Shown: positions 33,033 through 63,210, numbered from the stretch's first letter. The stretch is DNA of 64,000 nt from Betaproteobacteria bacterium (GCA_004297625.1 SCTY01000028.1:8848-72847); one strand, 5' to 3'. Made by a program: numbers and translations. Notes: a model not told the origin generated them from the sequence alone.

Positions 33033-33043
33033 GTCGTTTAACC

Positions 33044-47084: not shown

Positions 47085-49246
47085 AGACCGCGGCCTATCT
47101 CTGCGGCGGCTGCGGCATCGCCGAGCAGCTCGACACCGCACGCCTTGCCGCGATCGCCGAGCGCGAGGGCAAGGTGGATCTCGTGCGCGAGCATCCGTTC
47201 CTTTGCTCGGCCGAAGGGGTGCAGGCGATCCGCGAGGGCATCGACAAAGACGGCGCCACCCACGTGATGCTCGCCGCCTGCTCGCGGCGCGCGAAAACGG
47301 AGGCCTTTTACTTCCCCGACGTCGCGGTGGCGCGCGCCAACTTGCGCGAAGGCGTGGTCTGGATCCAGGAGAAGGGAGAAGCGGCGCAAGAGATGGCCGA
47401 CGACTACGTGCGCATGGCGTGCGCGGAACTGAAGCGCATGCAGGTGCCGAAAGCCGGCCCCGACACCGGGAAGAGCAAGCGGGTGCTCGTGGTCGGCGGC
47501 GGCATTTCGGGACTGACGGCGGCGCTCGAGGCGGCCGAGGCCGGCTACGAGGCGCTCATCGTCGAGAAGGAAGCGGCGCTCGGCGGCTGGGCTGCGCGCC
47601 TGCACCGCCGCATTCCGGAGCGCGCGCCTTTCAAAGATCCCGCGGAAACGGGCGTGCCGGCGCTTGTCGATGCCGTAACTCGAAATTCAAGAATTAAACT
47701 GCAATTGGGAACCACGGTTGCGCAAACCGCGGGCGCGCCCGGGCGCTTTCGCGTCACGCTGTCCAACGGGCGAACCGAAGAGGTCGGCGCCATCGTGCAG
47801 GCGAGCGGCTTCTCGCTCTACGACGCCGCGCGCCTCGCCGAGTTCTCCTACGGAAAGTCGCCCGACATCGTGGACCAGGCGGGGCTTGAGGCATTGGCGA
47901 AAAAATCGATCCCGATTCGTCGCCCGTCGGACAACAAGGAAGTCAAGCAGGTGGTTTTCGTGCAGTGCGCGGGGCAGCGCGACGACTCGGGCAAGCACCT
48001 GCCCTACTGCTCGGGCCACTGCTGCGCCACCTCGATGAAGCAGGCGATGTACTTCAAGGACGCGAATCCGGCCGTCGACACGGTGGTGATCTACACCGAC
48101 CTGCGCGTGCCGGGGAACGGAGAAGACTTCTACCGCTCTGCGCAGGCGAAGGGCGTCACCTTCACCAAGGGCAAGGTGTCGGCTGTCGAGGCCGACGGCG
48201 CGGTGAAGTTCAGGGACCTGATCCTTGATGAGGACACTCAAATTAAAGCCGACTTGGTGGTGCTCGCGACCGGGCAGGTGCCCAATTCCGGCGTCAACAT
48301 CGACAACCCCGACGAGCCGGACGCGAACGGCGCGAAGCCGATCTCGATCCTGAACCTCGAGTACCGGCAGGGAAGCGACCTGCCGCGGCTCGCGCACGGA
48401 TTCTCCGACTCGCACTTCATCTGCTTCCCGTACGAGACGCGCCGCACCGGCATCTACACCGCCGGGCCGGTGCGCCGGCCGATGGACATCGCGCAGGCGG
48501 TGGAGGACGCGACCGGCGCCGCGCTGAAGGCGATCCAGGCGACCGAGAACGCGGCGCTCGGGCGCGCGGCGCATCCGCGCTCCGGCGACCTCTCGTTCCC
48601 GCTGGTGCGTCTCGACGGTTGCACGCAGTGCAAGCGCTGCACCGTGGAATGCCCGTTCGGCGCCATCGACGAGGACGAGAAGCGCTACCCCGTCTTCAAC
48701 GAGAGCCGCTGCCGGCGCTGCAGCACGTGCATGGGCGCCTGCCCGGTGCGCGTGATCTCCTTCGAGAACTACTCGGTGGACTCCGTCGGCGCGCAGATCA
48801 AGGCGGTCGGGATCCCCGACGAGACCGAGGAGAAGCCGCGCATCCTCATCCTCGCGTGCGAGAACGACGCCTATCCGGCGCTCGACATGGCCGGGCTGCA
48901 GCGCGTCAAGTACTCGGCCGCGGTGCGCGTGATACCGGTGCGCTGCCTCGGCTCGGTGAACCAGGTCTGGGTGACCGACGCCCTGAATGCCGGCTACGAC
49001 GGCATCATGCTGCTGGGCTGCAAGCACGGCGACGACTACCAGTGCCACTTCGTGCGCGGCTCGGCGCTCGCGGCCGAGCGCATGAGCAAGATCGACGATA
49101 CGCTGAAGCAGCTCGCGCTCGAGAACGAGCGCGTCATCACCTGCGAGGCCGCGATCACCGACATCGCGAGGCTGCCGCGCCTGATCGACGAGTACGCGCA
49201 GACCATCGAGCGCATCGGCCTTTCGCCGCTCAAGGGGTTCGCATGA
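47081..49246 (+). CDS. qmoB: QmoB (HdrA-like flavoprotein with ferredoxin and MvhD-like C-terminal domains)
   Basis: 721 aa, VLVVGGGISGLTAALEAAEAG...CAGQRDDSGKHLPYCSGHCC...CTQCKRCTVECP...CRRCSTCMGACP...ILILACENDAYPALD. ATGA overlap with qmoA. Confidence 0.85.
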   Translation: MKTAAYLCGGCGIAEQLDTARLAAIAEREGKVDLVREHPFLCSAEGVQAIREGIDKDGATHVMLAACSRRAKTEAFYFPDVAVARANLREGVVWIQEKGEAAQEMADDYVRMACAELKRMQVPKAGPDTGKSKRVLVVGGGISGLTAALEAAEAGYEALIVEKEAALGGWAARLHRRIPERAPFKDPAETGVPALVDAVTRNSRIKLQLGTTVAQTAGAPGRFRVTLSNGRTEEVGAIVQASGFSLYDAARLAEFSYGKSPDIVDQAGLEALAKKSIPIRRPSDNKEVKQVVFVQCAGQRDDSGKHLPYCSGHCCATSMKQAMYFKDANPAVDTVVIYTDLRVPGNGEDFYRSAQAKGVTFTKGKVSAVEADGAVKFRDLILDEDTQIKADLVVLATGQVPNSGVNIDNPDEPDANGAKPISILNLEYRQGSDLPRLAHGFSDSHFICFPYETRRTGIYTAGPVRRPMDIAQAVEDATGAALKAIQATENAALGRAAHPRSGDLSFPLVRLDGCTQCKRCTVECPFGAIDEDEKRYPVFNESRCRRCSTCMGACPVRVISFENYSVDSVGAQIKAVGIPDETEEKPRILILACENDAYPALDMAGLQRVKYSAAVRVIPVRCLGSVNQVWVTDALNAGYDGIMLLGCKHGDDYQCHFVRGSALAAERMSKIDDTLKQLALENERVITCEAAITDIARLPRLIDEYAQTIERIGLSPLKGFA

Positions 49247-49391: not shown

Positions 49392-49991
49392 ATGAGCGCC
49401 TACCAGGGCGACTTCCTCAAGGAAGTCGAGGCCCGCGTCGAGGAAGGCGAATGGGTGAAGATGTGCATGCAGTGCGGCGTGTGCGCCGGCTCGTGCCCCT
49501 TCGGCCCGCACTGGGAGCATTCGCCGCAGAAGATCTTCATGATGATCCGCGCGGGCAAGCGCGAGGAGGTGCTCACCTCGGATGCGATGTGGATGTGCAC
49601 CTCCTGCTACAACTGCGTGGTGCGCTGCCCGCGCAAGCTGCCGATCACGCAGATCATGCATGGGCTCGCGACCTATGCCCATCGCCTGGGCCTCGCGCCG
49701 AAAATGCAGCCGACGCGGCGCTTCTCGGTCACGTTCTGGAGCAACCTCACCCGCACCGGGCGCGTGAACGAGTTGAAGCTCGTCCTCCAGGTCTATTTCC
49801 GCAACGGGTTCGCCGCAGGCCTCAAGGAGTTCTGGAACATGCGGCGCGTCGGGCTGCGGCTGCTCGCCGCGAAGCGCATGAACCCGTTCGAGCTCGTCTT
49901 TCCGCACCGCTGCAAGGACGCGAAGGGCATCCAGCGCATGCTCGCGAAAGCCTGCGAGATCGAGAACCGCAAGCGAGGATTCAGCCAATGA
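49392..49991 (+). CDS. hdrC: HdrC-like iron-sulfur protein (replaces QmoC)
   Basis: 199 aa with the motifs CMQCGVCAGSCP and CTSCYNCVVRCP. Confidence 0.85.
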   Translation: MSAYQGDFLKEVEARVEEGEWVKMCMQCGVCAGSCPFGPHWEHSPQKIFMMIRAGKREEVLTSDAMWMCTSCYNCVVRCPRKLPITQIMHGLATYAHRLGLAPKMQPTRRFSVTFWSNLTRTGRVNELKLVLQVYFRNGFAAGLKEFWNMRRVGLRLLAAKRMNPFELVFPHRCKDAKGIQRMLAKACEIENRKRGFSQ

Positions 49992-50902
49992 AGAAGGAAT
50001 ACGCGTTCTACCCCGGTTGCTCCTCGCAACTGCGCGGTTCGGCGTCGAACTACCTCACCAGCGTCAACAGCATGTGCCAGACGCTCGAGGTGAAGATGAC
50101 GCCGATCCCGGACTGGAACTGCTGCGGCGCCTCGATCGGCTACGCCGGCTCGGGAGAGCTCGCGCGGCACGTGATGAACGCCCGCAATTTCGCGCTCTCG
50201 GAAAAGCACCTGCCCGGGCAGGACGTCGTCGCGACCTGCGCCGCGTGCTGGCTCGGCGCCAAGGAAACCAAGCAGAAGCTCGACGCGAGCCGCGCCTTGA
50301 TGGAGGATACCAACGAGGCGTTGAAGGAAGCGGGGCTGCGCTACGAGGCGAAGACCGAGGTGCGCCACATGGTCGAGGTCCTGATCGAGGACATCGGCTA
50401 CGAGGAGATCCGCAAGCACGTCGTGAAGCCCCTCGAGGGCATCAAGTTCGCCGGCTACGTCGGCTGCCAGACCAACCGGCCGTTCGGCATCGCCGGCGAG
50501 TCGTTCGAGAACCCGATGTACCTGGACAAGCTCGTCGAGACCGTCGGCGGCGAGGCGCTCGTCAAGTACGAGCAGAAAGTCGCCTGCTGCGGCGGCGCGC
50601 TGGCGTTTTCCGAGCCCGACAAGAGCCAGAAGCAGATCAAGGAGATCGTCGAGGCGGCGTACGACCAGGGCGCCGACATGATCGTCACGCCCTGCCCGCT
50701 GTGCCAGGCCAACGTCGAGATCTACCAGGCCGAGATCAACCGCAAGCAGGGCACCAAGCTCGACATGCCGGTGATGTACTACTCGCAACTCCTCGCGGTG
50801 GCTTACGGCGCGGCGCCGAAGCAGGCGGGGCTCGACGGCCACGTGATCCAGCCGAAGAAGCTGCAGGACATCGCCGTCAAGGTCGTGCCGGCCAGGAAGT
50901 AG
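49988..50902 (+). CDS. hdrB: HdrB-like protein (two CCG domains)
   Basis: 304 aa, YPGCSS...NCCGASIG...ACCGGALAF...CPLCQ. ATGA overlap with hdrC. Confidence 0.85.
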   Translation: MKKEYAFYPGCSSQLRGSASNYLTSVNSMCQTLEVKMTPIPDWNCCGASIGYAGSGELARHVMNARNFALSEKHLPGQDVVATCAACWLGAKETKQKLDASRALMEDTNEALKEAGLRYEAKTEVRHMVEVLIEDIGYEEIRKHVVKPLEGIKFAGYVGCQTNRPFGIAGESFENPMYLDKLVETVGGEALVKYEQKVACCGGALAFSEPDKSQKQIKEIVEAAYDQGADMIVTPCPLCQANVEIYQAEINRKQGTKLDMPVMYYSQLLAVAYGAAPKQAGLDGHVIQPKKLQDIAVKVVPARK

Positions 50903-51238
50903 CGCGCTTCAACCCGCCGCTATCAAGCGCGGAATGTGCTGGGGACAATTGAGATCCCAGGCGTCAATGCTGAACACGATGGCGAATTCCGCAGCGCGTG
51001 ATGGTTACGCGCGTTACGCATCGGACCTACTGAGTCTCCATCAGTGTGTGTTGTCTGCTTTACGCTCCGGCTCAGGATGTTATGAGGAGCTTGCTCGACC
51101 AGTAGGCACCGCGTAGGCGGCGCAGACGGAAATCCAAAGCGTGGTGCAATTGATTGCACCGGCACCCAGCTTATGGATGCCTACGTCCTGCCTGCGGTCG
51201 GCCGCTCTGCTCGGATAAACGGACGAACGTAAGAGAAA

Positions 51239-52405
51239 TCAAATAAGCGCCCTTCCTCGTAGGTCTTTCCTCCGATCCACAGAAATGCCAAGTTCCTGCA
51301 GCACCTCGTCCGTGTGCTCGCCGAGATCCGGAGGCGGCCGTAATTGCGCTTCACGCTCGCCATCGAAGCGTAACGGTCGCCGCATGCCCCTGACCTCGCC
51401 GTGGACACCATGCAGTGACTTAAACAGTAAATTGAGGTGGCGTACCTGCGGATCGTCAAAGAGCTCATTCACCCGGCGTTCAGGCGCAAACGGTACGTCG
51501 TTCGCTTCAAGTACTTGCATCCATTCGTCTCGATTACGCTTGCGGAATATTCCGGCCAGCTCCTTTGCGATGTCCTCATAGCGCGAGATCCGAGCCCTGC
51601 GATCCGGATATTTCTGAAGGAAGTCAGGCCGCTCAATTGCTTTTGCGAGCGATTCCCAGAACTTGTTCGGTGACGAAAGTTGAAGGCCTATTCGTTTGCC
51701 ATCCCTGCATTCAAGCAAATAAGCCTGGGAAGTCGCACCCCGGGAATACTGGGTGGGAGCTTGGCCGGTCGCGAGATATTGGCCGATTGGTTCAGCCCCA
51801 AAAGCCATGGTGGCTTCCAGCATGCTGGTGTCCACCCTTCGCCCAACACCACTCTTTTCGCGATCAAACAGCGCGGCGAGAATGCCCAGGCAGGCGAAGA
51901 GCCCCGTAAGTGCATCTGAAACGGCTGGTCCGGCGACTCTCGGATCGCTTCCGTCATGAAAGAGTGAGAGCCAGCCACTCAATGTCTGGCCAACATTGTC
52001 ATACGCCGGCCTGGATGCATAAGGGCCATCGAAACCGAATCCCGTAATGGAGCAGTACACGAGCCGCTGATTGACCCCATGGAGTCGATCGTAGTCGACC
52101 CCCAGTTTTTCTGACACGCCAGGCCGATTGTTGAGAATGACCACATCCGCGTTGCTGACCAGCTTGTGCAATATTTCGAGGCCTTCAGGCTTCGAATAAT
52201 CCAGCGCGAGGCTTCGCTTGTGCCGGTTATATGACTGGAAATGAGGGCTATAAAGTCCGCCCTCAAAGGAGCGGAACGGATCACCGGTCCCGGGACGCTC
52301 GACCTTGACAACGTCCGCGCCCAGCTCGGCCAACAACATCGCTGCATAAGGCGCAGTAATGAAATTCCCGAGGTCTATTACCCGAATGCTGTGGAGAACA
52401 TTCAT
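51239..52405 (-). CDS. Family-III (CaiB/BaiF) CoA-transferase
   Basis: 388 aa, IRVIDLGNFITAPYAAMLLAELGADVVKVERPGTGDP... Confidence 0.9.
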   Translation of the reverse strand: MNVLHSIRVIDLGNFITAPYAAMLLAELGADVVKVERPGTGDPFRSFEGGLYSPHFQSYNRHKRSLALDYSKPEGLEILHKLVSNADVVILNNRPGVSEKLGVDYDRLHGVNQRLVYCSITGFGFDGPYASRPAYDNVGQTLSGWLSLFHDGSDPRVAGPAVSDALTGLFACLGILAALFDREKSGVGRRVDTSMLEATMAFGAEPIGQYLATGQAPTQYSRGATSQAYLLECRDGKRIGLQLSSPNKFWESLAKAIERPDFLQKYPDRRARISRYEDIAKELAGIFRKRNRDEWMQVLEANDVPFAPERRVNELFDDPQVRHLNLLFKSLHGVHGEVRGMRRPLRFDGEREAQLRPPPDLGEHTDEVLQELGISVDRRKDLRGRALI

Positions 52406-52417
52406 GATTTTTCCTAT

Positions 52418-53884
52418 CTAATTGCCTTCCTTACCGGCAATAAGCACAGAACCCGCGCCTTTCCGCACGTAGACATATGCGGGCCTTTTCTGCCTGGTCA
52501 AACCGTTAATCAACCCCTGCAGGTCTCGCGTCCCGTCAGAGCTCCGGCTTTGTGACCGTTCTGCGCGCATGGTAATGACCTCCTCCTTGCCGGCGACATA
52601 ACGAAGCAAGAGCTCGTCGTCCGAGATGTTCGAATCGCCATATTGTTCGCGCATTTCCGCCAGCGTCGGCTGAGGAGGTTGCCAGCGCGCGAGTTCGTCA
52701 GCGCGAGATCGGCGAAGAATGACATCCTTGATGGTCGGATCTATGGCATCACTTTCCTCTTCACCCCAGTGACCTAGGGCGTACTGGATGATCTCATCAG
52801 TGACTGTCTTGTATCGCTCCCCGGCCACTACATTTATGGCTGCCTGAACGCCGACATACTGCGAGTACGGCGTCACCATGATGGGATAGCCAAGATCCTC
52901 TCTTACTCTGGCAGTCTCCTTCAGCACTTCGTCAAGCTTGTTACCCAAGCCAGCACTTGCCAGTTGATGCCTGAGATTTGAGATCATGCCGCCGGGAACT
53001 TGATGAATAAATTGCTCATGGTCGTATGGCGCAGGGACACCAAGAGGCAATCCCTCTTGAATCGCAACGGAAGTGAGATGCTTCTCGACTGCTTTAATTG
53101 CGTCTTCATCAACTGATGACGAGTAACCGAGCGCCCTCGCATTCTTGACAATGTTCAAGATTGAGGGATTGGACGATCCGTCGGCAAGCGGTGGAATCGC
53201 AGTATTTATGTGCCGTATACCAAGCTTGATGGCCTCGAGACAGCAAAGAGGTCCGAGGCCAGTATGGCAATGAGTATGGAATTCAAGCGGGATTCCGTTG
53301 ACGTTCTTGAGGACCACCGGGACCAGAGTCCGTGTTCTTTCTGGTGTAAGCAAACTGCCGGGATCCTTGATGCAAATTCGGACAACGTCGAGCTTTGCCG
53401 CTTCCCTGGCCTTCTCGGCGTAGTACTCATCCGTGTGCTTTGGGGAATACGTATATATAAGGTTCAGGATAGGTGCGATTCCAACTTTCCGCGCCTGCCC
53501 GACGAGATAGCGCCATCGAGCGACCGTATTGGATGGATCTGCGAGGCGCGCTTCGCGTATTCCATGAGCAGCAATCCTCTTCCACCAGATTTCATCAATG
53601 GAGAGTGGGGTAATCTGAAAAGCCGCCAGGTAGCGGCTTCGGATCATGCGAAGCGGCGTCTTCTTGACCCGTTCTCCTACGAGATCAATTCTTTCCCAGG
53701 AGTCCTCGCCTAGCTCACGGACTATTTTCTTATCGAAGTTTGTGGCAAGAATTTCTATCGCCACGAATCCGGCTTCATCCATGTAGCTTGCGACGGCCAA
53801 CATCATCTCCGTCCTCATCCCGGTTGCCCATAGACTCATCTGCCCATCGCGAAGCGTGGTATCGATGTACGTGATATCCGGCAT
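52418..53884 (-). CDS. Carboxyltransferase subunit of a biotin-dependent 2-oxoacid carboxylase/decarboxylase (PycB/OadA 5S-type), no BCCP domain
   Basis: 488 aa, ITYIDTTLRDGQMSLWATGM...LEFHTHCHTGLG (HMGL-like TIM barrel plus PYC_OADA). The C-terminus carries no biotinyl domain. Confidence 0.85.
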   Translation of the reverse strand: MPDITYIDTTLRDGQMSLWATGMRTEMMLAVASYMDEAGFVAIEILATNFDKKIVRELGEDSWERIDLVGERVKKTPLRMIRSRYLAAFQITPLSIDEIWWKRIAAHGIREARLADPSNTVARWRYLVGQARKVGIAPILNLIYTYSPKHTDEYYAEKAREAAKLDVVRICIKDPGSLLTPERTRTLVPVVLKNVNGIPLEFHTHCHTGLGPLCCLEAIKLGIRHINTAIPPLADGSSNPSILNIVKNARALGYSSSVDEDAIKAVEKHLTSVAIQEGLPLGVPAPYDHEQFIHQVPGGMISNLRHQLASAGLGNKLDEVLKETARVREDLGYPIMVTPYSQYVGVQAAINVVAGERYKTVTDEIIQYALGHWGEEESDAIDPTIKDVILRRSRADELARWQPPQPTLAEMREQYGDSNISDDELLLRYVAGKEEVITMRAERSQSRSSDGTRDLQGLINGLTRQKRPAYVYVRKGAGSVLIAGKEGN

Positions 53885-53932
53885 GGCGGTTATTGCGCAG
53901 CTCCTGTCAGGGCACCGTGTGCGTGATTCCGA

Positions 53933-55291
53933 TCAGCCCGCAGGCATTTCGGGCATCAGCGCCTCGACGAGTCTGGTGCTGACCCGGCCCGATTCAAACT
54001 CGGGATGCCCGACCACGAAACGCAGGAATTCCAGAGTTGTACCGACGCCGGCAACCACAAAGTGATCGAGCGCCCATCGCATCCGCTGGAGTGCTTCGCC
54101 TCGATCTGCTCCGTGGACGATCAGCTTTGCCAACAGTGAATCGTAGTGTGGAGGCACCGTATAGCCCGCATAACAGTGTGTATCCAGCCTGACGTGCGCC
54201 CCTTCCGGTGGCACCCAAGTGCCGATCCGGCCAGGACATGGACGAAAATTTTCTTTGGGTATTTCTGCGTTTATTCGGCACTCAATGGCGTGACCACTGA
54301 ACCTCACATCCGACTGCTTAAAGCGTAGGGCGTCGCCGCCCGCCACACGAATCTGTTCCTGAACCAGGTCGATCCCAGTGATCATTTCAGTGACCGGATG
54401 CTCGACTTGGATGCGTGTGTTCATTTCGAGAAAATGAAACGTTTTCGCATCCTGATCCAGAACAAATTCAACGGTTCCGGCATTCTCGTACTGCATTTCC
54501 CGGGCGAGCGTGACTCCGGCCTCGTGAATCCGTTCCCTAAGTCGTTCATCAATTCCGGGCGCTGGTGTCTCCTCGATAAGCTTCTGGTGTCGCCGCTGCA
54601 GTGAACAATCCCGCTCGCCCAGATGGATCACATTGCTGTATCGATCACCGAAAACCTGTACCTCGATGTGGCGTGCATTCGGGATAAATCGCTCGACGTA
54701 GAGCGAGTCGTCACCAAACGCTGCACGTGCCTCAGCAGCTGCCGATTCAAACGCTCGTTGCAGGTCTGCGGCGTTTGTAACCACCTTCATACCGCGGCCT
54801 CCTCCGCCTGCGGCCGCCTTGATCATTACAGGCAACCCAACCTTCTCGGCAATTGTCAAAGCGTGCTTGTACGAGAAGAACTTTTCCGACCCGGGAAGAA
54901 CGGGCAAGCCGTAACGATCGGCAAGTGTCCGGGCAAGGACCTTGTTGCCCATAACTCGGATCTGCTCGGGAGTCGGACCGATAAACGTAATACCTGCTGA
55001 GCGACACGCCTGAGCAAGCTCAGCGGACTCGGCGAGAAATCCATAACCCGGATGGATTGCATCTGATCCGGTGCCGAGAGCCGACGCGACGATGGCCTTG
55101 ATGTTCAGATAGCTGTCCGCCGCCCTTGCGGGGCCAATACACACAGTACGACCGGCCATCCTGCTCGGAAGGCTGTCGCGATCAGCCTCGGAAATCGCAA
55201 GTACCGTATCAATTCCAAGTGCCTGGCAGGCCGTAATGATTCGAACGGCAATTTCGCCCCGATTGGCAACAAGGACGCGCGATATGCTCAT
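53933..55291 (-). CDS. Biotin carboxylase subunit
   Basis: 452 aa with an ATP-grasp fold, MSISRVLVANRGEIAVRII...GGGGRGMKVV...EMNTRIQVEHPVTE. Confidence 0.92.
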   Translation of the reverse strand: MSISRVLVANRGEIAVRIITACQALGIDTVLAISEADRDSLPSRMAGRTVCIGPARAADSYLNIKAIVASALGTGSDAIHPGYGFLAESAELAQACRSAGITFIGPTPEQIRVMGNKVLARTLADRYGLPVLPGSEKFFSYKHALTIAEKVGLPVMIKAAAGGGGRGMKVVTNAADLQRAFESAAAEARAAFGDDSLYVERFIPNARHIEVQVFGDRYSNVIHLGERDCSLQRRHQKLIEETPAPGIDERLRERIHEAGVTLAREMQYENAGTVEFVLDQDAKTFHFLEMNTRIQVEHPVTEMITGIDLVQEQIRVAGGDALRFKQSDVRFSGHAIECRINAEIPKENFRPCPGRIGTWVPPEGAHVRLDTHCYAGYTVPPHYDSLLAKLIVHGADRGEALQRMRWALDHFVVAGVGTTLEFLRFVVGHPEFESGRVSTRLVEALMPEMPAG

Positions 55292-55319
55292 GTGGTTCGT
55301 TCGCCAGCTCGAGCCGCGC

Positions 55320-55823
55320 TCAGCGGCTTGGTCGCACTCTCATAAGAACGGCGCCATATTCAACGAACTGCTCATCCTTGGCGCAGATCTCCACAATCAC
55401 ACCACTTGCTGCGGCCGGAACCGCGGTGAATACCTTCATTACTTCAATGAGTCCAACTGTCGACTCGGCAGTCACCTCTGAGCCAACCGAGACAAAGGGG
55501 GGCGCCTTCGGCTCGGGTCTTGTATAGAAACGCCCGACCATGGGAGCCTTGACATCGAGGAGTCCATCTGCGGGCGCTTTCTCCTGCACGCCATGGGCTA
55601 TGCCGTCGGCCAAAGCGGGAGTCGACCCGCCTGTCTGCTCGGCAACATCAGCTTCGGGAGCTGCCACGTCCAATGTAGCTGGCATGGTTCCCTTGCCAAT
55701 GGTTACCTGCATCTGCCCGGCCCTGATCTGCAAAAAATCGAACGTCGAGCGATCGAGTATTTGAACCAGTCGGGCAATTTTCTGGATTTCCTCGTCGCTA
55801 AGCAGATCGCGTTGGTCGGTCAC
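55320..55823 (-). CDS. Stand-alone biotin carboxyl carrier protein
   Basis: The C-terminal biotinyl domain reads ...VGLIEVMKVFTAVPAAASGVIVEI. GTG 55823 with an AAGGGA RBS is preferred; the alternative is GTG 55886. Confidence 0.8.
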   Translation of the reverse strand: MTDQRDLLSDEEIQKIARLVQILDRSTFDFLQIRAGQMQVTIGKGTMPATLDVAAPEADVAEQTGGSTPALADGIAHGVQEKAPADGLLDVKAPMVGRFYTRPEPKAPPFVSVGSEVTAESTVGLIEVMKVFTAVPAAASGVIVEICAKDEQFVEYGAVLMRVRPSR

Positions 55824-55959
55824 TTTACGTTTCCCTTTGTGTCCGAGGAAACGACTTCCGTCTCCTCGTCGCTCCGCTGACTCCACTGCCCAGCGGGAGA
55901 ATCATTTCTCATAGCCGCTTCGCCGCTGACACGTTCCGTCCATTCGTTCGAGTTGAGCT

Positions 55960-57060
55960 CTAAATGGCGCGACCGCGCCAGGTATAGGGAAGCCGGGTCC
56001 CAATACCTTTTGCTTCGGCGGCCTCGATCATTCGAGCGCCAATGGCCGCGAACTGGATTCCCATTCCGGTGTTATTGAAGTGAAACGTTATGTCGTCAAA
56101 TGCACGTTGCGGCGGCGCCTTCCCGACAATCTGAGAGAGCTCCACAATCTGATCCATCGATACCTTACCGTTCTTTATAAGCGGGAGGATGTCGGGCTGC
56201 TCGTCCAGCTCAACTTGCACCTTGGAATTAACAACGACCAATGAAGAACGTGTAACGGTCTCCTCGTCAATCTCTTTTCTTTGATCCAGTCGGTCGCCGC
56301 CCGAGATTGATATCACGTGAGCGCCCGGCTTGATCCATTCCCCCTTCATCACGGGCTCTATTGCGTTGGTAGCAGCCACCACAACGTCTGCGCCGCGAAC
56401 CGCCTTCTCGCCGGTATCGACCGCTACAAACTCGACTCCGGGGGTTCGCTCCTGCTGCTGCTTGACGAATCGCGTGCGGTGCTCAGGATTCGGCGAATAA
56501 ATATTGATGCGTTCGAAGTTCCGCACACTCATCATCGCCGTGAGGTGCCAGCGAGCTTGCCAACCGGTACCCAGAAGTCCCATGGTTCTGCAATCTTTCC
56601 GTGCCATGTATCTCGCGCCCAGCGCACTCGTACAGGCAACGCGAATCGGATTGATGTAGAAGTCATGAATGATGCCGCGAAGGGTGCCGGTCTCCAGATC
56701 GAATACATGTACTAGCCCGACCAGAGTGCCAGGGAACTCCATTCGTCGTGTGCCGAACTGTGTGACGAACTTCACTTTGCCGGAGTTCACTCGTAGCGCA
56801 CCAGTGTTCGTTCCGGGGACGAGTCCTGCGTGGAGATTGAACCAGTGGTGCGTGTCTGGCTCGCCCAGCGGCACGAACAAGCGTTGACGCGGCATGTTCT
56901 GGGCGACACCCTCCCCGAGTTGCCGATATGCAATTTCGAGAGCATCTACATAGGAGGGAATATCGAGGATGGCCTTGGTGTCATCGTTGGTCAGGAGAAG
57001 AGGACCGTCCTTCATGGACATTTTTGTGTTACGGGCTTTGGCTGGCGAAGGTGAATTCAC
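55960..57060 (-). CDS. Ornithine cyclodeaminase/mu-crystallin-family NAD(P)-dependent enzyme
   Basis: 366 aa with the Rossmann motif GLLGTGWQARWHL. GTG start with a GGGGAGG RBS, and GTGA overlap with the upstream SBP gene. Confidence 0.85.
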   Translation of the reverse strand: MNSPSPAKARNTKMSMKDGPLLLTNDDTKAILDIPSYVDALEIAYRQLGEGVAQNMPRQRLFVPLGEPDTHHWFNLHAGLVPGTNTGALRVNSGKVKFVTQFGTRRMEFPGTLVGLVHVFDLETGTLRGIIHDFYINPIRVACTSALGARYMARKDCRTMGLLGTGWQARWHLTAMMSVRNFERINIYSPNPEHRTRFVKQQQERTPGVEFVAVDTGEKAVRGADVVVAATNAIEPVMKGEWIKPGAHVISISGGDRLDQRKEIDEETVTRSSLVVVNSKVQVELDEQPDILPLIKNGKVSMDQIVELSQIVGKAPPQRAFDDITFHFNNTGMGIQFAAIGARMIEAAEAKGIGTRLPYTWRGRAI

Positions 57061-58091
57061 GGAAGCCTCCCCGCAAACTGAAAGTCTGCGAACTCAGAAA
57101 CCGGAATGTCGCGCTTGAGAATGCCTATTCCACGGTACACCTTCAGATCGTTTTCCAGCCTTGAGGCGCTGATGCCAAATTCCTTTCCGTAACCCGATCG
57201 GATCGAGGACACAACCTTCAAGGCATTTTCTTCGTCGAGTTTCATATCCGGAGCGAGAAGCTCCGCAACTAGCTCGTCAGATGCTGAAGTTATGAAGTCG
57301 TGTCCCTTATGCGTGGCCTTGAGCACCTTCGCCAACACATCCTTCTTCTCACTTATTTGCTTTTCGGTTGTGAACATCGCCATGGAGGCAACTTCGCCGC
57401 CAAACCATTCCACTGAGGCTCCGGGCTTTCTTAGATCAACCAGCGGTTGGGCGATCCCGCGGTTAACCAGGACGTTCTGAATCGGTTGCCACACGACACC
57501 GGCCTCCGCTTCCTTGCGTTCGAACAGATTTATCCAGACGGGTGGCGCGTAATCTGTGATGTGGATGACCTTGACGTCCGAGCGGTAATCAAGACCTCCC
57601 TTTTGCAGCACGGCCATGCCGACGGCCCAGGCGGCGGCACCTGCTTGCGGAGTAATTACGCGCATACCTTTCAGATCGGAGATCTTCTTGATCTTTCCTA
57701 CGAGGTCCGAACGAATCATCACGGCGAAGCTCTCTGCGTTGTACCAGAGCCCGATCAGCTTGAAGGGCAGACCAGACTGGCGTGCAATTGCGCCTACAGG
57801 TACCGTAATAAGCGCAACGTCGATGTCTCCGGATGCGAGCGCATCGCGGGTTCTGGGCCCGCCTAAATAGATAAGCTGCGGATCCACGCCTTCGTCGCGG
57901 AAGTAGCCTTTGCGCACTGCCGCCCAGACGGGGCCGTTCAGCTCATAGGCCGGTACCGTCCCGATCTTTACCTTCTGTGCCTGTGCACTGGCTTCCAGCG
58001 GGATTAAAAGAACAAGGCCCGCAACTGCCGTTATGCATGCTGCGAGGCGCTTTTTCCAGGAAGCGGGATTCGCCGATTTTTCCTGTTTCAT
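57057..58091 (-). CDS. ABC transporter periplasmic substrate-binding protein (NMT1/THI5, NitT/TauT family)
   Basis: Start at MKQEKSANPAS with a GAGGAGG RBS and a signal peptide ending ..LEASAQAQ. Confidence 0.85.
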   Translation of the reverse strand: MKQEKSANPASWKKRLAACITAVAGLVLLIPLEASAQAQKVKIGTVPAYELNGPVWAAVRKGYFRDEGVDPQLIYLGGPRTRDALASGDIDVALITVPVGAIARQSGLPFKLIGLWYNAESFAVMIRSDLVGKIKKISDLKGMRVITPQAGAAAWAVGMAVLQKGGLDYRSDVKVIHITDYAPPVWINLFERKEAEAGVVWQPIQNVLVNRGIAQPLVDLRKPGASVEWFGGEVASMAMFTTEKQISEKKDVLAKVLKATHKGHDFITSASDELVAELLAPDMKLDEENALKVVSSIRSGYGKEFGISASRLENDLKVYRGIGILKRDIPVSEFADFQFAGRLP

Positions 58092-58221
58092 GATGCCTCC
58101 TCTGTGGATGAGAGCCGTATGGGACGGTGGCAAGAAGGTGCTCTCACTTCATCTCCTTGCGGTAATGCTGTTTGCCATCCTATGCACTATGAAAAAATCT
58201 CCGGCTTCCGTTCTAAGCGCG

Positions 58222-58998
58222 TCAGATTGACACCGCAGGCGGACGCCAGCGAAGCAACCGCTTCTCAACGCGCTGCGCCAGGCTTGTGAGCGTGACTCCA
58301 ACCACCATCAGCAGGACAAGAATCGCGTAGACCATGTCCGTCTGAAGCAAACCTTCTGAAACAAGCAGGCGATAGCCCAAGCCCTCCGTAGCGCCAGCAA
58401 ATTCGCCGACAATCGCCCCAAGAAGCGAAAACGCCACGCTCACACGAAGGGCAGCAAAGATCCATGACACGACTGATGGCACGACTACAATGCTGACGAT
58501 CTGTCCGCTCGAAGCCCCCAGCAATCGAATCGCGCGAATGTAATCAGGATCGATTGCCTTCACTCCCGCGTAGACGTTGTAGAACACGACAAAGAACACC
58601 GCCGACCAGCTCGCGAGGATCTTCGAGCTCATACCCAAACCGAACCAGATCACCAGAAGCGGAGCAAGTGCGGGCCGTGGTACTGCGTTTACCGCCTGAA
58701 AGAAAGGCTCAAATACCCGGTCGAGCAACCGGTAGCGCGCAAACAGGACTCCAATCAGAACACCGGTGATCGTTCCGGATACGAGTCCGGCGAAGGCCTC
58801 AACAAGCGTTACAACGAGATCAGTGAAGAGGACTACGTATTCGTGCTGGAATGCCCCAATGATCTTGAGAGGCGAACTGAAGTAGAGAGCTGTGGGACTG
58901 GTTGCCTTTATCCACCCGCCCGTCAACAACTCCCAGCCGATCAGAAATGCACCAAGCACTCCGAACCGCAGAAAGTGAATCGTGGCATTGTCTTTCAC
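58222..58998 (-). CDS. ABC transporter permease (NitT/TauT family)
   Basis: 258 aa of the BPD_transp_1 type. GTGA overlap with the ATPase stop. Confidence 0.9.
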   Translation of the reverse strand: MKDNATIHFLRFGVLGAFLIGWELLTGGWIKATSPTALYFSSPLKIIGAFQHEYVVLFTDLVVTLVEAFAGLVSGTITGVLIGVLFARYRLLDRVFEPFFQAVNAVPRPALAPLLVIWFGLGMSSKILASWSAVFFVVFYNVYAGVKAIDPDYIRAIRLLGASSGQIVSIVVVPSVVSWIFAALRVSVAFSLLGAIVGEFAGATEGLGYRLLVSEGLLQTDMVYAILVLLMVVGVTLTSLAQRVEKRLLRWRPPAVSI

Positions 58999-59825
58999 GC
59001 GATTCCTTTCGCTGCCGAATTCTTCAGCTGCGAGAGTTCGATATCACCTTTCAGCTCCTTCCAGATTTCCCGGTAGGCGTCCTGGAAGGCCGGAGCGACC
59101 CTTGCATCTATGACGGATCGCGGATGCGGGATATCAATGTCAAAAACCCTGTGAATCTTCGCCGGTCGTCGACTCATCAGGACAACGCGATTACCGAGCA
59201 GGATGCTTTCCTCTACATCATGCGTGACGAAGAGGATAGTTGTCTTGGCGGCATGCCAGAGGTCGATCAGCAACTGCTGAAGTGTCATTCGGGTCTGTGC
59301 ATCGAGCGCACCGAATGGCTCGTCCATGAGAACCACTTCAGGATTGCATGCGAGCGTTCGGATGATGTTCGCTCTTTGCCTCATGCCTCCCGACATGGCG
59401 AATGGATAGGATTTTTCGAATCCCGCAAGTCCTACCCGATGAATCCACGATTGGACCTGGGCTTCTCGCTCATGGGACGGCATACCCATGATTTCAAGCC
59501 CTACGCCAACATTGGCCTCGAGAGTTCTCCATGGAAGCAAGGTGTCTTTCTGAAGTACGTAACCCAGTCTATGGGCCGCGTTCGAACGCCAGGCGATATC
59601 GATGGTGCCCTCGAATTGGTCTGCCGCATGCTCCACGGTCTTGCTTACAAGGTTCATGAGCGTCGACTTTCCGCAACCGGATGGTCCGATTACGGTGACG
59701 AACTCGCCTTCCTTTATTGCGAGATCGATCCCGTCCAGCACCCGAACGGGGCCGGCTTCCGATGGGAAAGTCAGCCTCACCCTCTGAATCCGAATCTTGT
59801 CGGGTTGGCTCAAATTAGAGTTCAT
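58995..59825 (-). CDS. ABC transporter ATP-binding protein (NitT/TauT family)
   Basis: Walker A GPSGCGKST, signature MSGGMRQR and Walker B VVLMDEPFGALD. Confidence 0.9.
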   Translation of the reverse strand: MNSNLSQPDKIRIQRVRLTFPSEAGPVRVLDGIDLAIKEGEFVTVIGPSGCGKSTLMNLVSKTVEHAADQFEGTIDIAWRSNAAHRLGYVLQKDTLLPWRTLEANVGVGLEIMGMPSHEREAQVQSWIHRVGLAGFEKSYPFAMSGGMRQRANIIRTLACNPEVVLMDEPFGALDAQTRMTLQQLLIDLWHAAKTTILFVTHDVEESILLGNRVVLMSRRPAKIHRVFDIDIPHPRSVIDARVAPAFQDAYREIWKELKGDIELSQLKNSAAKGIA

Positions 59826-59858
59826 GAGGCAAAGCAAACGGCGCTGAGCAGGGATATT

Positions 59859-60758
59859 TCATGACGCGCGCTGAGCCTTGGGGACGCCGGACATGACTCG
59901 TTCGGTGCCGTTTGTGCCGCTCCGAGAGCCCGCTGATCTCAGAGCCGGCCGTCTACCGCCTGCAACTTCGGGTTTGCGCTTTGCACGCGGTTGTGCATGG
60001 TGGCCCAGCTCGGCCGATATCTGCCGGGCAGCGTCCATTACAAGTTGGGCGAGCTTCACGCGCGACGACTTCATTCGCGCCTTCAGACCCGCTACAGTGA
60101 GCGCTGCGACGACTGCACCAGACTGATCTCTGATTGCCGCAGCGATTCCCAGCGCGCCGACATAATTTTCCTCATCGCTTTCGGCAAACCCCTGCCTGCG
60201 AACCTTCAACAGTTCCTGATGAAATTCGGCTCGATCTGTAATGGAGGCGGCCGTACGACTCGGCAAGCCCGTATCGTCTAGGATCCGATCAACCTCTTCG
60301 TCGTCGAGTCCGGCAAGGATCGCCTTCCCGAGCGCTGAGGAATGGACGTAGGCCCGGACGCCGACGTTCTCATCAAACCGAATGCCGTGAGCGCCTCCGA
60401 CCTTGTGAATGATTACCACCCGGCCAACTTCACATACTCCTAGGTAGACGGCTTCGCCGGTCTTTTCAGCGAGTCGTCGAGCGATCGGGCTCGCTACATC
60501 CAGTAACGTGATATGGCTCAGAACCTCCGAACCCAGTGAAAGAATTTTCAGCCCGATGTAGTACTTAAGATCTTCCGGCGTTTGGCGCACCCAACCGCGC
60601 CGACACAGGGTGCCCAGAAGTCGGTGCGCCGTGCTTCTCTTCATTGCAAGGATCCGGGCGATCTCGCGCACCCCATGCGCTCCGGGGTTGCGCGCCAGCC
60701 ACTCGAGAAGGACCAACGCCCGCTCGACAATACGACTGGTTTGAGCCTCCTCCGGCAT
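59859..60758 (-). CDS. IclR-family transcriptional regulator
   Basis: N-terminal wHTH (VERALVLLEWLARNPGAHGVREIARILAMKRSTAHRLL) plus an IclR effector domain and a basic C-terminal tail. Confidence 0.9.
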   Translation of the reverse strand: MPEEAQTSRIVERALVLLEWLARNPGAHGVREIARILAMKRSTAHRLLGTLCRRGWVRQTPEDLKYYIGLKILSLGSEVLSHITLLDVASPIARRLAEKTGEAVYLGVCEVGRVVIIHKVGGAHGIRFDENVGVRAYVHSSALGKAILAGLDDEEVDRILDDTGLPSRTAASITDRAEFHQELLKVRRQGFAESDEENYVGALGIAAAIRDQSGAVVAALTVAGLKARMKSSRVKLAQLVMDAARQISAELGHHAQPRAKRKPEVAGGRRPALRSAGSRSGTNGTERVMSGVPKAQRAS

Positions 60759-60761
60759 CAA

Positions 60762-60780
60762 TTCGGGACGTTGTCCCGAA
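60762..60780. promoter_or_regulatory. Perfect inverted repeat abutting the iclR start codon
   Basis: TTCGGGAC-gtt-GTCCCGAA with 8-bp arms, 3 nt upstream of the ATG at 60758. Confidence 0.35.
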
Positions 60781-61100
60781 ATTCGTACGCTGTCAAGAGT
60801 CGCCGAAGAGAGACCGGGCTGGCGTCAATGCGGGGGCTCCGGGCTGTCTGGCCAGTCGATGGGACGACCGATGTGAACGCTCCAAGCGCCGCTGACAGGG
60901 GTGCCGCCCAACCTGAGGCACCGCCGATGCCTACGGTCCACCTACGGGCGTAAGCATGTCATGGCGGCGGCGTGTGATTTCCGCAGGTTGCGCAAGGGAC
61001 CTGCTAATGCTGCCTTAGTGCATAGGCTTAGTCGTAGCGTCGCTATTTATAAAAAAGGGCTTTCGGTGAACTAGGCGATGCGTGGCTTAACTGCTCGAGA

Positions 61101-61898
61101 CTATTTCTCGCGAACCACGCGGTTCGAAAGGATGCCGATCTTATCGTTTATAACTTCGACCAGATCACCAGGCTCGAGGGCAGGTAGCGTGGGGCCATCG
61201 CAGCCCAACCATATGACGTCGCCGGGCTGGAGTGTCAAGTATGCTGTCATGCGTGCAATGTAGTGCTGGAGGCTAAAGATCGCGCGCTTCGTCGTATACG
61301 ACGTGGCGATCTTACCATTGACTCGCACGGTAATGTTTTGATCCATGGGGTCCAGATCTGCGACGACCACGGGGCCCATGGGTTTGAACGTGTCAATGTT
61401 CTTCGCGCGCCATAGCGTGCGATCGCTTTTTTGGAAACTACGCTCGCTGAGATCGTTGCCCAACGTGTAGCCGGCGATGCAATCCAGCGCCTGCTCCTCG
61501 GTTAGGTGCTTAGCGCGCCTGCCCACGACGGCAACAAGTTCCCCTTCAAAGTGGACAGGCCCCGGAGCGTCCTTCGGAATGACGATATCGGCACCGCTAC
61601 CGATCAACGCGTTCGCGGAGCGGTAGCCGATGTCCGCCTGGGTCGGAGCTTTCAGGGACATGCCGAGGTACTGGTTTGCCCACTCGATGTGATCGCGAAA
61701 ATTGATACCTGCGGCGTAGAAGTTTGGCGGTGTAACGGGAGCCATGAGCTTCGCCGTCGCGAGCGGTACCCGCTCGCCGGTATGCTTGTGCGGTCCATAG
61801 GGCGCGCCATCAATGAGCGCTATTTCGTTGTCAATAACAATACCGAAGGAGGGTCCGCCATTTACATCCAGGCGGCACCATTTGATAGCTTCTTTCAT
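61101..61898 (-). CDS. Fumarylacetoacetate hydrolase (FAH)-family protein
   Basis: 265 aa, ...HFEGELVAVVGRRAKHL...GYTLGNDLSERSFQ...KNIDTFKPMGP... Confidence 0.9.
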   Translation of the reverse strand: MKEAIKWCRLDVNGGPSFGIVIDNEIALIDGAPYGPHKHTGERVPLATAKLMAPVTPPNFYAAGINFRDHIEWANQYLGMSLKAPTQADIGYRSANALIGSGADIVIPKDAPGPVHFEGELVAVVGRRAKHLTEEQALDCIAGYTLGNDLSERSFQKSDRTLWRAKNIDTFKPMGPVVVADLDPMDQNITVRVNGKIATSYTTKRAIFSLQHYIARMTAYLTLQPGDVIWLGCDGPTLPALEPGDLVEVINDKIGILSNRVVREK

Positions 61899-62052: not shown

Positions 62053-63210
62053 TCACGCCTGAACTGCTATTGCGTTCAGGCAGACTTGCGAAAGGCCCGG
62101 CAGCTCTGCACCGCCTACTACGACGGCAGGTAGCTCTTTGCTGAAGCGCGAACGAAGAATCTCTTTTAGCTGATTCATGCGATAGATGTCCGTCAGGTAG
62201 ACATCCAGTCGGGCTATCGATTGAAGATCGCAATTACAGGTATCTAGACGCTTCGCCAAGGTATTAAGCGCGTTCTGGACTTGCGCTTCAAAGTCGCCAG
62301 CAAGTGCAATGGCCGCCTTCCCATTATCACCATCGAGCGCACCCAAACATTCGCCCACAAACGCGAACCCGCCGGCGGATACAGCGAGAACACCGTTGCC
62401 GCCGCTCGCGTACACCTTTTTGACTTTCTGGCCAGGCGCAAGAGCGAGCGCAGTCACCTCAATTTCACCTCGCGCACCCAGCGGCAATCCTACGGTCGTA
62501 GCAGCAACAGCCGTGTCACCGACTATGGCCCGCCTCGCCGCGCGATCCTCGTCAGCTCGGCCGATCTCCCGCAGAAAGCAATCAATACGCAAGAGGCTTT
62601 CACTGGTCGCTCCACACTTTTTGAGGATCTCGCACATGACCTCGTAGCAAACCCGAGCCTGCGCTGACAGAGACTCTTGCGTTTCCTCCGCGACGGCTCG
62701 TCCTGACCTGGGATCGACCGTACCTCGAAGGCCAGAAAGAAATACGAAAGGTCCGCCCAATACAGCCGACGAGATATTGCCCATGCCGTACTCGGGACCC
62801 GTAACTAGCACCTTCTTCCTGTTTGCGTCACGCACGGCGACAACTGCAGTGGTGAGCATGTTAAGTCCCGCCATCTTCGCAGCGACTCCCGTGCTCGCCA
62901 GTGGTGCGGGCCTACCGAAGAACTTTCCCCGCACCGTCTGTCGACGCGGCAGCCAGTCCTGGCTACTGGTAAAGTGGTCAAGACGAACGACCGCATTCAT
63001 TTCCGCATTCGCCTTGCCTAATACAGCGGCCACCGCCCCGTATGAGTTTTCACATTGCGCCTCGGCAGCGCCAGCCAAGCCCGGCTCTATCTTTTGGGTT
63101 TTGAGATCTCGGATGCCGTCGTAACCTGAGGTAAAAAGTAAGGGCCCTGCCTCTACCACTCCAGCACCAATTGCTGGCCCTTCCTGGACCAGTACTCGCT
63201 TGCTTATCAT
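62053..63210 (-). CDS. Triple tandem RidA/YjgF/TdcF-like domain protein
   Basis: 385 aa, about 3 x 128. Each third repeats GP(L/F)xF(T/L)SG... and ..AQxxxxxxxxxxxLxxxxxxxxxxxRLDxx(T/L). None of the thirds has a PAR(S/T) motif. Confidence 0.8.
   Translation of the reverse strand: MISKRVLVQEGPAIGAGVVEAGPLLFTSGYDGIRDLKTQKIEPGLAGAAEAQCENSYGAVAAVLGKANAEMNAVVRLDHFTSSQDWLPRRQTVRGKFFGRPAPLASTGVAAKMAGLNMLTTAVVAVRDANRKKVLVTGPEYGMGNISSAVLGGPFVFLSGLRGTVDPRSGRAVAEETQESLSAQARVCYEVMCEILKKCGATSESLLRIDCFLREIGRADEDRAARRAIVGDTAVAATTVGLPLGARGEIEVTALALAPGQKVKKVYASGGNGVLAVSAGGFAFVGECLGALDGDNGKAAIALAGDFEAQVQNALNTLAKRLDTCNCDLQSIARLDVYLTDIYRMNQLKEILRSRFSKELPAVVVGGAELPGLSQVCLNAIAVQA

Follow-up and report, generated by a model that had tools for sequence, protein, structure and literature searches.

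Gene content and genomic setting

A 64,000-nucleotide stretch of the genome of a Betaproteobacteria bacterium (GCA_004297625.1, SCTY01000028.1:8848-72847; hereafter the window) carries a nine-gene set in which an ATP-binding cassette (ABC) importer, an OCD-family enzyme, a three-subunit biotin-dependent carboxylase and a coenzyme A (CoA) transferase follow an IclR-family regulator. All nine open reading frames, verified between positions 51239 and 60758, are co-directional and lie on the minus strand; the profiles named below are those of Pfam. From upstream to downstream, they encode the IclR-family regulator (59859..60758; HTH_IclR and IclR_C, 9e-41), an ABC ATPase of the NitT/TauT family (58995..59837; ABC_tran, 1e-27), an ABC permease (58222..58998, GTG start; BPD_transp_1, 6e-27), a periplasmic NMT1/SsuA-like binding protein (57057..58133; NMT1, 1.4e-17) and a divergent OCD/mu-crystallin-family NAD(P) enzyme (55960..57060, GTG start; OCD_Mu_crystall, PF02423, 3e-38). 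The carboxylase genes come next: a stand-alone AccB-like biotin carboxyl carrier protein (BCCP; 55320..55886, start uncertain; Biotin_lipoyl, 2e-15), an AccC-like biotin carboxylase (BC) of the ATP-grasp type (53933..55291; Biotin_carb_N, CPSase_L_D2 and Biotin_carb_C, down to 2e-74) and a BCCP-less carboxyltransferase (CT) of the PycB/5S type (52418..53884; HMGL-like, PF00682, and PYC_OADA, PF02436). A class III (CaiB/BaiF) CoA-transferase closes the set (51239..52405; CoA_transf_3, 3e-102, 343 bits over the full profile).

The gene content, gene order and GTGA start/stop overlaps reported in a preliminary description of this DNA were confirmed by open reading frame calls, Pfam and sequence reading. 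One overlap joins the ATPase to the permease gene (58995-58998, read directly) and another the binding protein to the OCD gene (57057-57060), while the remaining intergenic gaps span 12-133 nt. No intrinsic terminator was predicted in any gap among the nine genes, predicted sites being at or below the shuffle expectation, so that co-transcription of the nine genes is likely. After caiB, RNA folding of 50950..51240 yielded a z of only -2.0, hence no clear terminator.

The same interval (50950..51240) forms the boundary between high-GC host DNA and a low-GC island: guanine-cytosine (GC) content is 0.64-0.70 up to about 51.0-51.2 kb, where it drops to 0.54-0.585, and it does not recover before the window end (0.55 for the unit as against 0.66). 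All nine genes recur in unchanged order, at 70-90% protein identity, in the metagenomic contigs L089/L090, and the arrangement is therefore far beyond chance. There, too, the copy is of low GC (0.52-0.57) beside a flank of 0.69-0.73, and its neighbours differ from those in the window, being SelA at one end and TctC at the opposite end. Because they remain intact beside different neighbours and keep their GC contrast, the nine genes form a discrete transferable unit, and we take the operon to be a horizontally acquired, mobile, low-GC catabolic island. A megablast search of the whole cluster against plasmids gave no match. The source is a Betaproteobacteria metagenome-assembled genome, the CT being identical to the protein P0001, encoded on a 380-kb contig, and a scan of a genome collection with the CT returned two relatives only, at 55-63% identity.

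The carboxyltransferase departs from pyruvate-specific enzymes

The CT is of the HMGL-like/5S type and not of the crotonase type, as had been proposed: its Pfam domains are an HMGL-like TIM barrel followed by PYC_OADA. Its best match among solved structures is PycB of a two-subunit pyruvate carboxylase (5ks8, E 1.8e-60), and its AlphaFold2 model (pLDDT 82.6) reaches TM-scores of about 0.8 to 5S, OadA, PycB and pyruvate carboxylase CT domains (0.80 to 1rqb, the 5S structure; 0.81 to 5ks8; ~0.80 to 2nx9). The metal ligands D13, H203 and H205 and the carbamylated lysine K173 are kept, and are invariant in the crown clade; R12, R82, R113 and S302 are conserved as well. Pfam finds no biotinyl domain in the protein. 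The preliminary description was thus right that a fused BCCP is missing, but wrong to see this as unusual, since its absence is the norm both in the whole radiation described below and in transcarboxylase 5S.

Fold and metal site are shared with the pyruvate enzymes; the signatures of specificity are not. The window CT scores 321 against a cut-off of 402 for the NCBIfam PycB domain model, 288 against 734 for the PycB equivalog, 286 against 756 for OadA and 193 against 827 for 5S. It also reads RDGQMS where canonical enzymes have RDxHQS. The HQ pair is present in 11 of 13 canonical representatives and the glutamine in all 13; this residue corresponds to the pyruvate-binding Gln552 of R. etli pyruvate carboxylase (PMC10653868, citing PDB 4JX4-6). 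In every OCD-linked CT checked (P0001, P0075, P0081 and P0087, all RDGQMS), methionine replaces the pyruvate-binding glutamine and glutamine replaces the preceding histidine. Other stretches are altered too, canonical GGATFD reading A-TNFDKK in the window, LRGQN reading IRSRY and KDM reading KDP. Neither mark of a pyruvate/oxaloacetate-specific CT, whether the RDxHQS motif or a score above the NCBIfam cut-offs, is thus found in this protein.

An ordinary two-subunit pyruvate carboxylase, the identity against which the preliminary description had asked the cluster to be checked, is on this evidence not what the genes encode. Cut-offs, motif and CT scores all speak against it, as do the lack of a biotinyl domain and the location on a low-GC island with its own regulator and importer. 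With PycA/PycB of Methylobacillus flagellatus (5ks8) the system shares the CT fold, the metal/carbamyl-lysine chemistry and a separate BC subunit; the BCCP, however, forms part of PycB there, whereas here it is an AccB-like protein of its own, and the motif has HQ there and QM here.

A search of 1.84 billion 50%-identity representatives gave 420 CT clusters at E<=1e-30. Full-length matches above ~232 bits are nearly all 450-510 aa long and devoid of a BCCP, and the canonical 600-670-aa forms (RDAHQS, IKDMA) appear only from ~232 bits downward. Within this BCCP-less radiation, position 15 may be Q, P, H, N, S or A, and R82 is present in 44, R113 in 27 and the carbamyl-lysine in 46 of 73 sequences, all three being invariant in the 13 canonical ones. 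Even among close relatives the family loci vary in the RDGxxS motif (HQ 37, QL 12, QA 12, QQ 8, QM 6, NQ 5). Such variable substrate contacts are the pattern expected of a substrate-diversified family. Hpe-like CTs (L100 7950-9449; 12 of the 73 BCCP-less representatives) have a glutamate at the carbamyl-lysine position (IEIEDAAG), which may provide an encoded carboxylate in place of the carbamate as metal ligand. A neighbour-joining tree built without bootstrap places the window CT inside the BCCP-less radiation, in a crown clade apart from the Hpe (PQ) and Acv (NQ) branches.

Carrier, biotin carboxylase and CoA-transferase

The partners of the CT retain their catalytic motifs. The BCCP matches the TIGR00531 BCCP model with 95 bits, its nearest NCBIfam relative being AccB, and bears the biotinylation motif EVMKV at residues 148-152. 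The BC exceeds the cut-off of its PRK08591 subfamily (645 bits, cut-off 597), is nearest to AccC and has intact GGGGRG, HIEVQ and EMNTRIQVEH motifs. Class III membership of the CoA-transferase is borne out by the catalytic-aspartate motif VSDALTG; its nearest solved structure is the C5-dicarboxylate transferase SUGCT (7.5e-57), and its best NCBIfam model, succinate-glutarate CoA-transferase, gives 238 bits against a cut-off of 750. All catalytic parts of the module therefore look functional by their motifs. CaiB proteins encoded beside family CTs with the motifs QL, QQ, NT and PQ are 42-51% identical to the window CaiB, and those not adjoining a CT 28-35%, which suggests a CT-linked CaiB lineage that would act on a common product feature, most simply the newly added carboxyl group.

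Two family members (P0060, 639 aa; P0241, 674 aa) have the CT fused to an AccB-like BCCP, including the AccB N-terminal region. We read these fusions as independent evidence that such a CT works with an AccB-like carrier.

Relation to characterised carboxylases

The preliminary description knew of no characterised match for this combination of genes, a statement that has to be revised: HpeCBA, AcvCDE and the predicted XccABC provide a characterised analogue. HpeCBA of Rhodococcus rhodochrous GD02 carboxylates 4-phospho-acetophenone and 4-phospho-acetovanillone, converting one ATP to ADP; the product is then dephosphorylated by HpeD, and CoA thioesterification by HpeE and beta-ketoacyl-CoA cleavage by HpeF have been proposed to follow (PMC9618137). 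An equivalent reaction is catalysed in Sphingobium sp. SYK-6 by AcvCDE, made up of an AccB-like BCCP, an AccC-like BC and a PycB-like CT (bioRxiv 10.1101/2022.04.28.489975), and the beta-keto acid product is converted via vanilloyl-CoA by VceA/VceB. XccABC of Aromatoleum aromaticum EbN1 is the predicted anaerobic counterpart.

In our CT comparisons, HpeB, AcvE and XccA were represented by plasmid homologues. A search of annotated plasmid proteins found members of the BCCP-less radiation in cultured bacteria: clusters of Pseudomonas putida YC-AE1 and Sphingobium yanoikuyae encode a Tm-1-like kinase, BCCP, BC, CT and a HAD phosphatase, matching the acvBCDEF organisation, and a Rhodococcus oxybenzonivorans cluster has genes for PEP-utilising kinase, BCCP, BC, CT, DUF35, thiolase and phosphatase. 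The window CT aligns over its full length with the Hpe-like plasmid CT (327 bits) and up to about residue 441-447 with Acv-like ones (272-300 bits); eight canonical BCCP-fused representatives give 199-228 bits, over the N-terminal 375-424 residues only.

What the window shares with the Hpe, Acv and Xcc systems is a separate AccB-like BCCP, an AccC-like BC and a PycB-like CT of ~490 aa without BCCP, all within a horizontally transferred catabolic cluster; in the window, too, the carboxylation product would then be activated with CoA. The differences are nevertheless marked. The window CT is only 37-39% identical to those CTs and falls in another subclade; its motif is RDGQMS, as opposed to RDGNQS in Acv-like and RDGPQS in Hpe-like proteins; and it keeps R82, R113 and K173, which are partly lost in the Hpe-like and Acv-like CTs. 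An aryl-ketone kinase (PEP-utilising or Tm-1-like) and a phosphatase, present in L098, L099 and L100, are absent from the window cluster, where an OCD enzyme and an ABC importer take their place and a CoA-transferase takes that of the CoA ligase. By its architecture the cluster does belong to the three-component biotin-dependent carboxylases with a BCCP-less PycB-like CT and subsequent CoA activation, a kind recognised since 2022. New here are the subclade, the active-site motif and the association with OCD enzyme, importer and CoA-transferase, as well as a substrate that is probably an aliphatic compound of amino-acid origin.

Other carboxylases resemble the system in part. With the 5S and 1.3S subunits of Propionibacterium transcarboxylase (1rqb) it shares a BCCP-less HMGL-like + PYC_OADA protein and a separate biotin carrier, but it has an ATP-dependent BC and lacks the 12S acyl-CoA carboxyltransferase partner. 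CfiAB of Hydrogenobacter is a biotin-dependent 2-oxoglutarate carboxylase, and thus acts on a 2-oxo acid other than pyruvate with a PycB-type CT; CfiB, however, carries a biotinyl domain, and the enzyme serves autotrophic CO2 fixation. Acetone and acetophenone carboxylases are hydantoinase-type enzymes that do not depend on biotin, and carry out an ATP-driven carboxylation beside a carbonyl group, followed by CoA activation and thiolysis. Their pathway logic is that of the route proposed below, although the proteins are not homologous (contrasted in PMC9618137). Our literature search returned nothing relevant on OCD enzymes with biotin carboxylase and CoA-transferase, on DRE-TIM carboxyltransferases or on OCD enzymes with CaiB.

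Conserved linkage among relatives

We surveyed the neighbourhoods of family CTs in 88 loci. BC and BCCP adjoin the CT in about a quarter of them, CaiB homologues occur in ~11 and NMT1 binding proteins in 22. Two types of Amidohydro_2 protein are found in 20 and 14 loci, isochorismatase-family hydrolases in 6-8 and a 260-aa citrate-synthase-like (citryl-CoA-lyase-like) protein in 4, and an AlaDh_PNT alanine dehydrogenase lies beside canonical-HQ sister clades in 7.

Orthologues of the window OCD enzyme (62-65% identical) are rare and, wherever enough DNA is available, are found with the same partners in rearranged form. L093 has NMT1, permease, ATPase and isochorismatase genes, then OCD, a Crp regulator and a CaiB-BCCP-BC-CT block. 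In L094, ATPase-permease and NMT1 genes are followed by insertion sequence (IS) elements, OCD-BCCP, a BC remnant, CaiB-CT and an integrase; L095 runs BioB, BC, OCD-BCCP, IS elements, CT-CaiB. L102 (5003-9147) and L103 (2996-8716) have a Crp regulator and BCCP-CT-OCD-NMT1-ATPase-permease, continued after the permease by an SDR/epimerase, a 3-hydroxyacyl-CoA dehydrogenase, a TauE/SafE protein of the sulfite-exporter family and BioB. In L103 the CT stop codon abuts the OCD start, and neither CaiB nor BC was found in the L102/L103 stretch seen. The set of OCD, BCCP, CT and importer genes, joined by BC and CaiB wherever the contig is intact, is kept through at least four rearrangements with changing regulators, which argues that its genes are functionally coupled.

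Relatives also encode functions for downstream beta-keto chemistry. DUF35 and thiolase genes are present in L006, L091 and L100, 3-hydroxyacyl-CoA dehydrogenase genes in L066, L101 and L102, and citryl-CoA-lyase-like genes in L008, L066, L076 and L101. Biotin-synthesis genes in L095, L097 and L102, together with a carbonic anhydrase in L097, fit a carboxylase that may work at high flux.

The importer, the OCD enzyme and the regulator

The importer belongs to the NitT/TauT family, an assignment that extends to family level only. NCBIfam places it nearest to TauB/TauC/SsuA-type systems, the permease being TauC/SsuC-like; every equivalog cut-off is missed, by the ATPase (best match TauB, 198 bits) and by the binding protein (70 bits to SsuA_fam) alike, and for this reason the ligand is not readable from the family. 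Nor can a substrate be read from the binding protein, which among solved structures comes closest to ThiY (2e-4) and, with a better score, to an uncharacterised protein of Bordetella (1e-7). The best NCBIfam names for the transporter, SaoA/SaoP, denote a selenoprotein-associated ABC transporter and give no clue to the ligand. A bicarbonate importer (CmpA-like) was set aside, because the binding protein fits SsuA-type and not NrtA/CmpA-type models. That the transporter looks more like sulfonate than nitrate importers is one lead to the substrate; TauE, seen in the L102/L103 locus only, is another pointer that the substrate could be a sulfonate. The ATPase is 90% identical to its counterpart in L089 and 57-68% to those in L093/L094. 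The translated binding protein has a signal-peptide-like N-terminus and the L089 alignment begins at residue 14; its true start is probably near 58091.

The OCD enzyme has the Rossmann motif GTGWQA at residue 164 and belongs to PF02423. Its nearest solved structure is the Pyr2C reductase 6t3e (1.5e-37), with iminosuccinate reductase and the alanine dehydrogenase of archaea (1omo, 1.2e-22) coming next, and it scores 73-143 bits against NCBIfam models of alanine dehydrogenase, Pyr2C reductase, BhcD, EutC and OCD that have cut-offs of 266-500. Relatives at E<=1e-30 number only 122 in 5.8 billion proteins. In a complete genome, an OCD paralogue 42% identical to it (L096) has a context unrelated to carboxylases. 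Beside the carboxylase cluster of L093 lies a second, divergent LysR-OCD-CaiB-TctC set (14336-18475; OCD 37% and CaiB 35% identical to the window proteins), so OCD and CaiB pairs also occur without a carboxylase.

The regulator combines the N-terminal HTH_IclR with the C-terminal effector domain of its family and is 79% identical in L089; its best NCBIfam match, BhcR, is far below cut-off (177 bits, cut-off 350). The iclR start kept in L089 is the ATG at 60758, and an upstream TTG at 60761 is not kept. Between the window and L089 only ~45 nt upstream of iclR are conserved, the rest having diverged. These comprise a -35-like hexamer, TTGACA (60791..60796, minus strand), and a perfect 8-3-8 palindrome, TTCGGGAC-N3-GTCCCGAA (60762..60780), the sole perfect match in the window and a candidate IclR operator. 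The palindrome sits between the hexamer and the start codon, adjoining the ATG, and its L089 counterpart is near-identical (TTCGGGACAACGTCCCAGA). The region resembles a promoter under autoregulation whose leader is very short or absent. Control by IclR, as first suggested, thus agrees with the gene and its two domains; it is not a fixed feature of the system, since relatives have Crp-family regulators instead.

Additional loci and flanking genes

Several relatives are of interest in their own right. The closest relative found in a cultured strain is on a plasmid of Sulfitobacter faviae OXR-9 (L101, 1-10449; CT 46% identical), with genes for a citryl-CoA-lyase-like protein, CaiB (42%), 3-hydroxyacyl-CoA dehydrogenase, isochorismatase, TRAP transporter, accB, accC and CT; the same type of module is found in L066 and L076. 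Plasmid p2 of Burkholderia sp. THE68 (L097, 3064-19446) carries a canonical-HQ CT grouped with accB and accC; their neighbours encode an acetoacetate-decarboxylase-family protein, an ActP-type acetate symporter, a carbonic anhydrase and a full bioA-bioF-bioD-bioB set, and the whole looks like a culturable system built for high-flux carboxylation. Caballeronia sp. NK8 is a further culturable carrier of a relative. Copies in L094, L095 and L004/L005 are full of IS elements, one adjoining a phage-type integrase, and the L094 BC is a 99-aa remnant only; to judge from these traces the copies are mobile and in places decaying. Tandem paralogous family CTs occur in L011, L020, L042, L044, L047, L054, L058, L064, L067, L069, L073, L078 and L091, often flanking an Amidohydro_2 gene and sometimes differing in their RDGxxS motifs. 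In L006, hydantoinase A/B genes lie beside the CT and CaiB.

On the minus strand beyond iclR, the low-GC DNA of the window encodes a FAH-family hydrolase (61101-61898), a 385-aa protein with repeated RidA/L-PSP domains (tandem RidA; 62053-63210) and an ABM-domain protein (63229-63594). None of these genes adjoins the nine-gene unit in L089, which makes it probable that the island carries them as independent cargo. The high-GC host flank on the other side (24923-50952) encodes heterodisulfide-reductase-like proteins, among them an HdrA/MvhD-like protein (46604-49246) and Fer4 + CCG proteins (49392-50902, 24923-25945 and 28543-29880), together with a molybdopterin oxidoreductase (42922-45714), a globin-domain protein (39448-40791), a FadL/TodX outer-membrane channel (37495-38823) and a radical-SAM protein (31824-33053).

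Discussion

The gene set, its motifs, linkage, island nature and family placement are established by the analysis; for the catabolic scheme that follows, we infer substrate class, order of steps, CoA donor and regulation. The NitT/TauT-type ABC system would import a small amino or imino acid, possibly sulfonated, and the OCD enzyme, using NAD(P)+, would turn it by oxidation of the C-alpha-N bond into a 2-oxo acid or a cyclic 2-imino acid. BC would spend ATP to carboxylate biotin on the BCCP, and the CT would move the CO2 to an enolisable carbon beside the C=O or C=N bond, giving a beta-keto dicarboxylate. This labile product would be trapped as a CoA thioester by the CaiB-type transferase, with succinyl-CoA as the likely donor, and a thiolase, lyase or 3-hydroxyacyl-CoA dehydrogenase encoded elsewhere would finish the breakdown. 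IclR would control the operon from the palindrome overlapping its own promoter. The flow from uptake through an oxo acid and ATP-dependent carboxylation to CoA activation, already put forward in the preliminary description, is favoured by the comparative evidence too; as a whole, from import, OCD oxidation, biotin-dependent carboxylation and CoA transfer to cleavage elsewhere, we give the scheme an even chance of being right. We propose more tentatively, and at somewhat below even chances, that the RDGQMS clade carboxylates a non-aromatic 2-oxo or cyclic 2-imino acid that stems from an amino acid, possibly a sulfonated one, in a reaction not yet described. The carboxylate-binding arginines retained in the CT would fit a substrate with an alpha-carboxylate. 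Alanine, 2-aminobutyrate, proline or pipecolate via Pyr2C/Pip2C, cysteate, homocysteate and 4-aminopentanoate via levulinate were considered as individual substrates; the data could not discriminate among them and none is asserted.

Several observations weigh against this interpretation. No thiolase or lyase was found in the window cluster, L089 or L093. For a plain 2-oxo acid, carboxylation, CoA activation and thiolysis would bring no obvious gain over oxidative decarboxylation. RDGQMS CTs occur in L006, L007, L011 and L091 with no OCD gene nearby, the CT tree is a neighbour-joining tree without bootstrap, and the CT keeps R82 and R113, so that pyruvate itself may be a substrate. These two pyruvate-type arginines, the metal site and the carbamyl-lysine, together with PycB, OadA and 5S as the nearest solved structures, would all suit a dedicated three-subunit pyruvate carboxylase, in which the OCD protein, as an alanine- or opine-type dehydrogenase, frees pyruvate for anaplerotic oxaloacetate formation and CaiB serves another step or is incidental. 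The OCD family does include the archaeal alanine dehydrogenase 1omo, and HQ-motif sister clades adjoin AlaDh_PNT in the 7 loci mentioned above. We nevertheless regard this alternative as unlikely: the exchange of glutamine for methionine and histidine for glutamine extends to every OCD-linked CT checked, all NCBIfam PycB, OadA and 5S models are missed by a wide margin, and the CaiB linkage is kept across rearrangements.

CoA activation could also come first, CaiB making a CoA thioester of the imported acid or of the OCD product and the CT then carboxylating this thioester-bearing oxo compound, with the methionine accommodating the thioester end. A hydrophobic replacement at a polar contact would suit such a substrate, related HMGL-like (DRE-TIM) enzymes are generally known to bind acyl-CoA, and CaiB precedes the carboxylase genes in L093, L008, L010, L053 and L066. 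However, no PycB/5S-type CT is generally known to use a CoA ester, the carboxylate-binding arginine is kept, and the characterised relatives carboxylate free phosphorylated ketones and are followed by CoA activation (PMC9618137), so that we consider this order distinctly improbable. Still less probable is a decarboxylase or transcarboxylase in which the CT moves CO2 from an oxaloacetate-like beta-keto acid onto biotin. The structural relatives OadA and 5S work in this way and for many family CTs neither BC nor BCCP is encoded within 10 kb, but a full ATP-grasp BC stands beside BCCP and CT in the window, L089 and L093, and its presence makes the reverse decarboxylation once entertained for this locus unlikely. 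The window moreover encodes no membrane OadB/OadG subunits and no 12S-type partner, and relatives adjoin biotin-synthesis and carbonic anhydrase genes. As for mere adjacency, in which the nine genes would constitute neither one functional unit nor an operon, internal promoters could lie in the 73-133 nt gaps that precede the genes for the binding protein and the BCCP, and transporter and carboxylase are separate transcription units in relatives. Against this stand nine-gene synteny at 70-90% identity in a different context, the same components in at least four rearranged versions, start/stop overlaps and the absence of predicted intergenic terminators, which leave adjacency alone with hardly any credibility.

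Biotin-dependent carboxylases are known for only a handful of substrates. The branch that carboxylates ketones has been known only since 2022, with phosphorylated aryl ketones as its sole recognised substrates. The module described here suggests that the same architecture has been recruited to another catabolic setting, together with an amino- or imino-acid dehydrogenase, an ABC importer and a CoA-transferase. If our interpretation of the RDGQMS clade is true, the BCCP-less radiation would be a toolbox, hardly explored so far, of carboxylases that form C-C bonds with ATP on diverse ketones and oxo acids; it would cover part of the 420 clusters, and its substrate contacts at RDGxxS, R82/R84, R113 and even the carbamyl-lysine are hypervariable. 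For pathways of CO2 fixation and lignin upgrading, there is a demand for ATP-driven C-C carboxylases whose specificity is defined. The identity of the substrate would add a new carboxylation reaction, and might reveal how soil Betaproteobacteria process a metabolite that contains nitrogen or sulfur by a new route.

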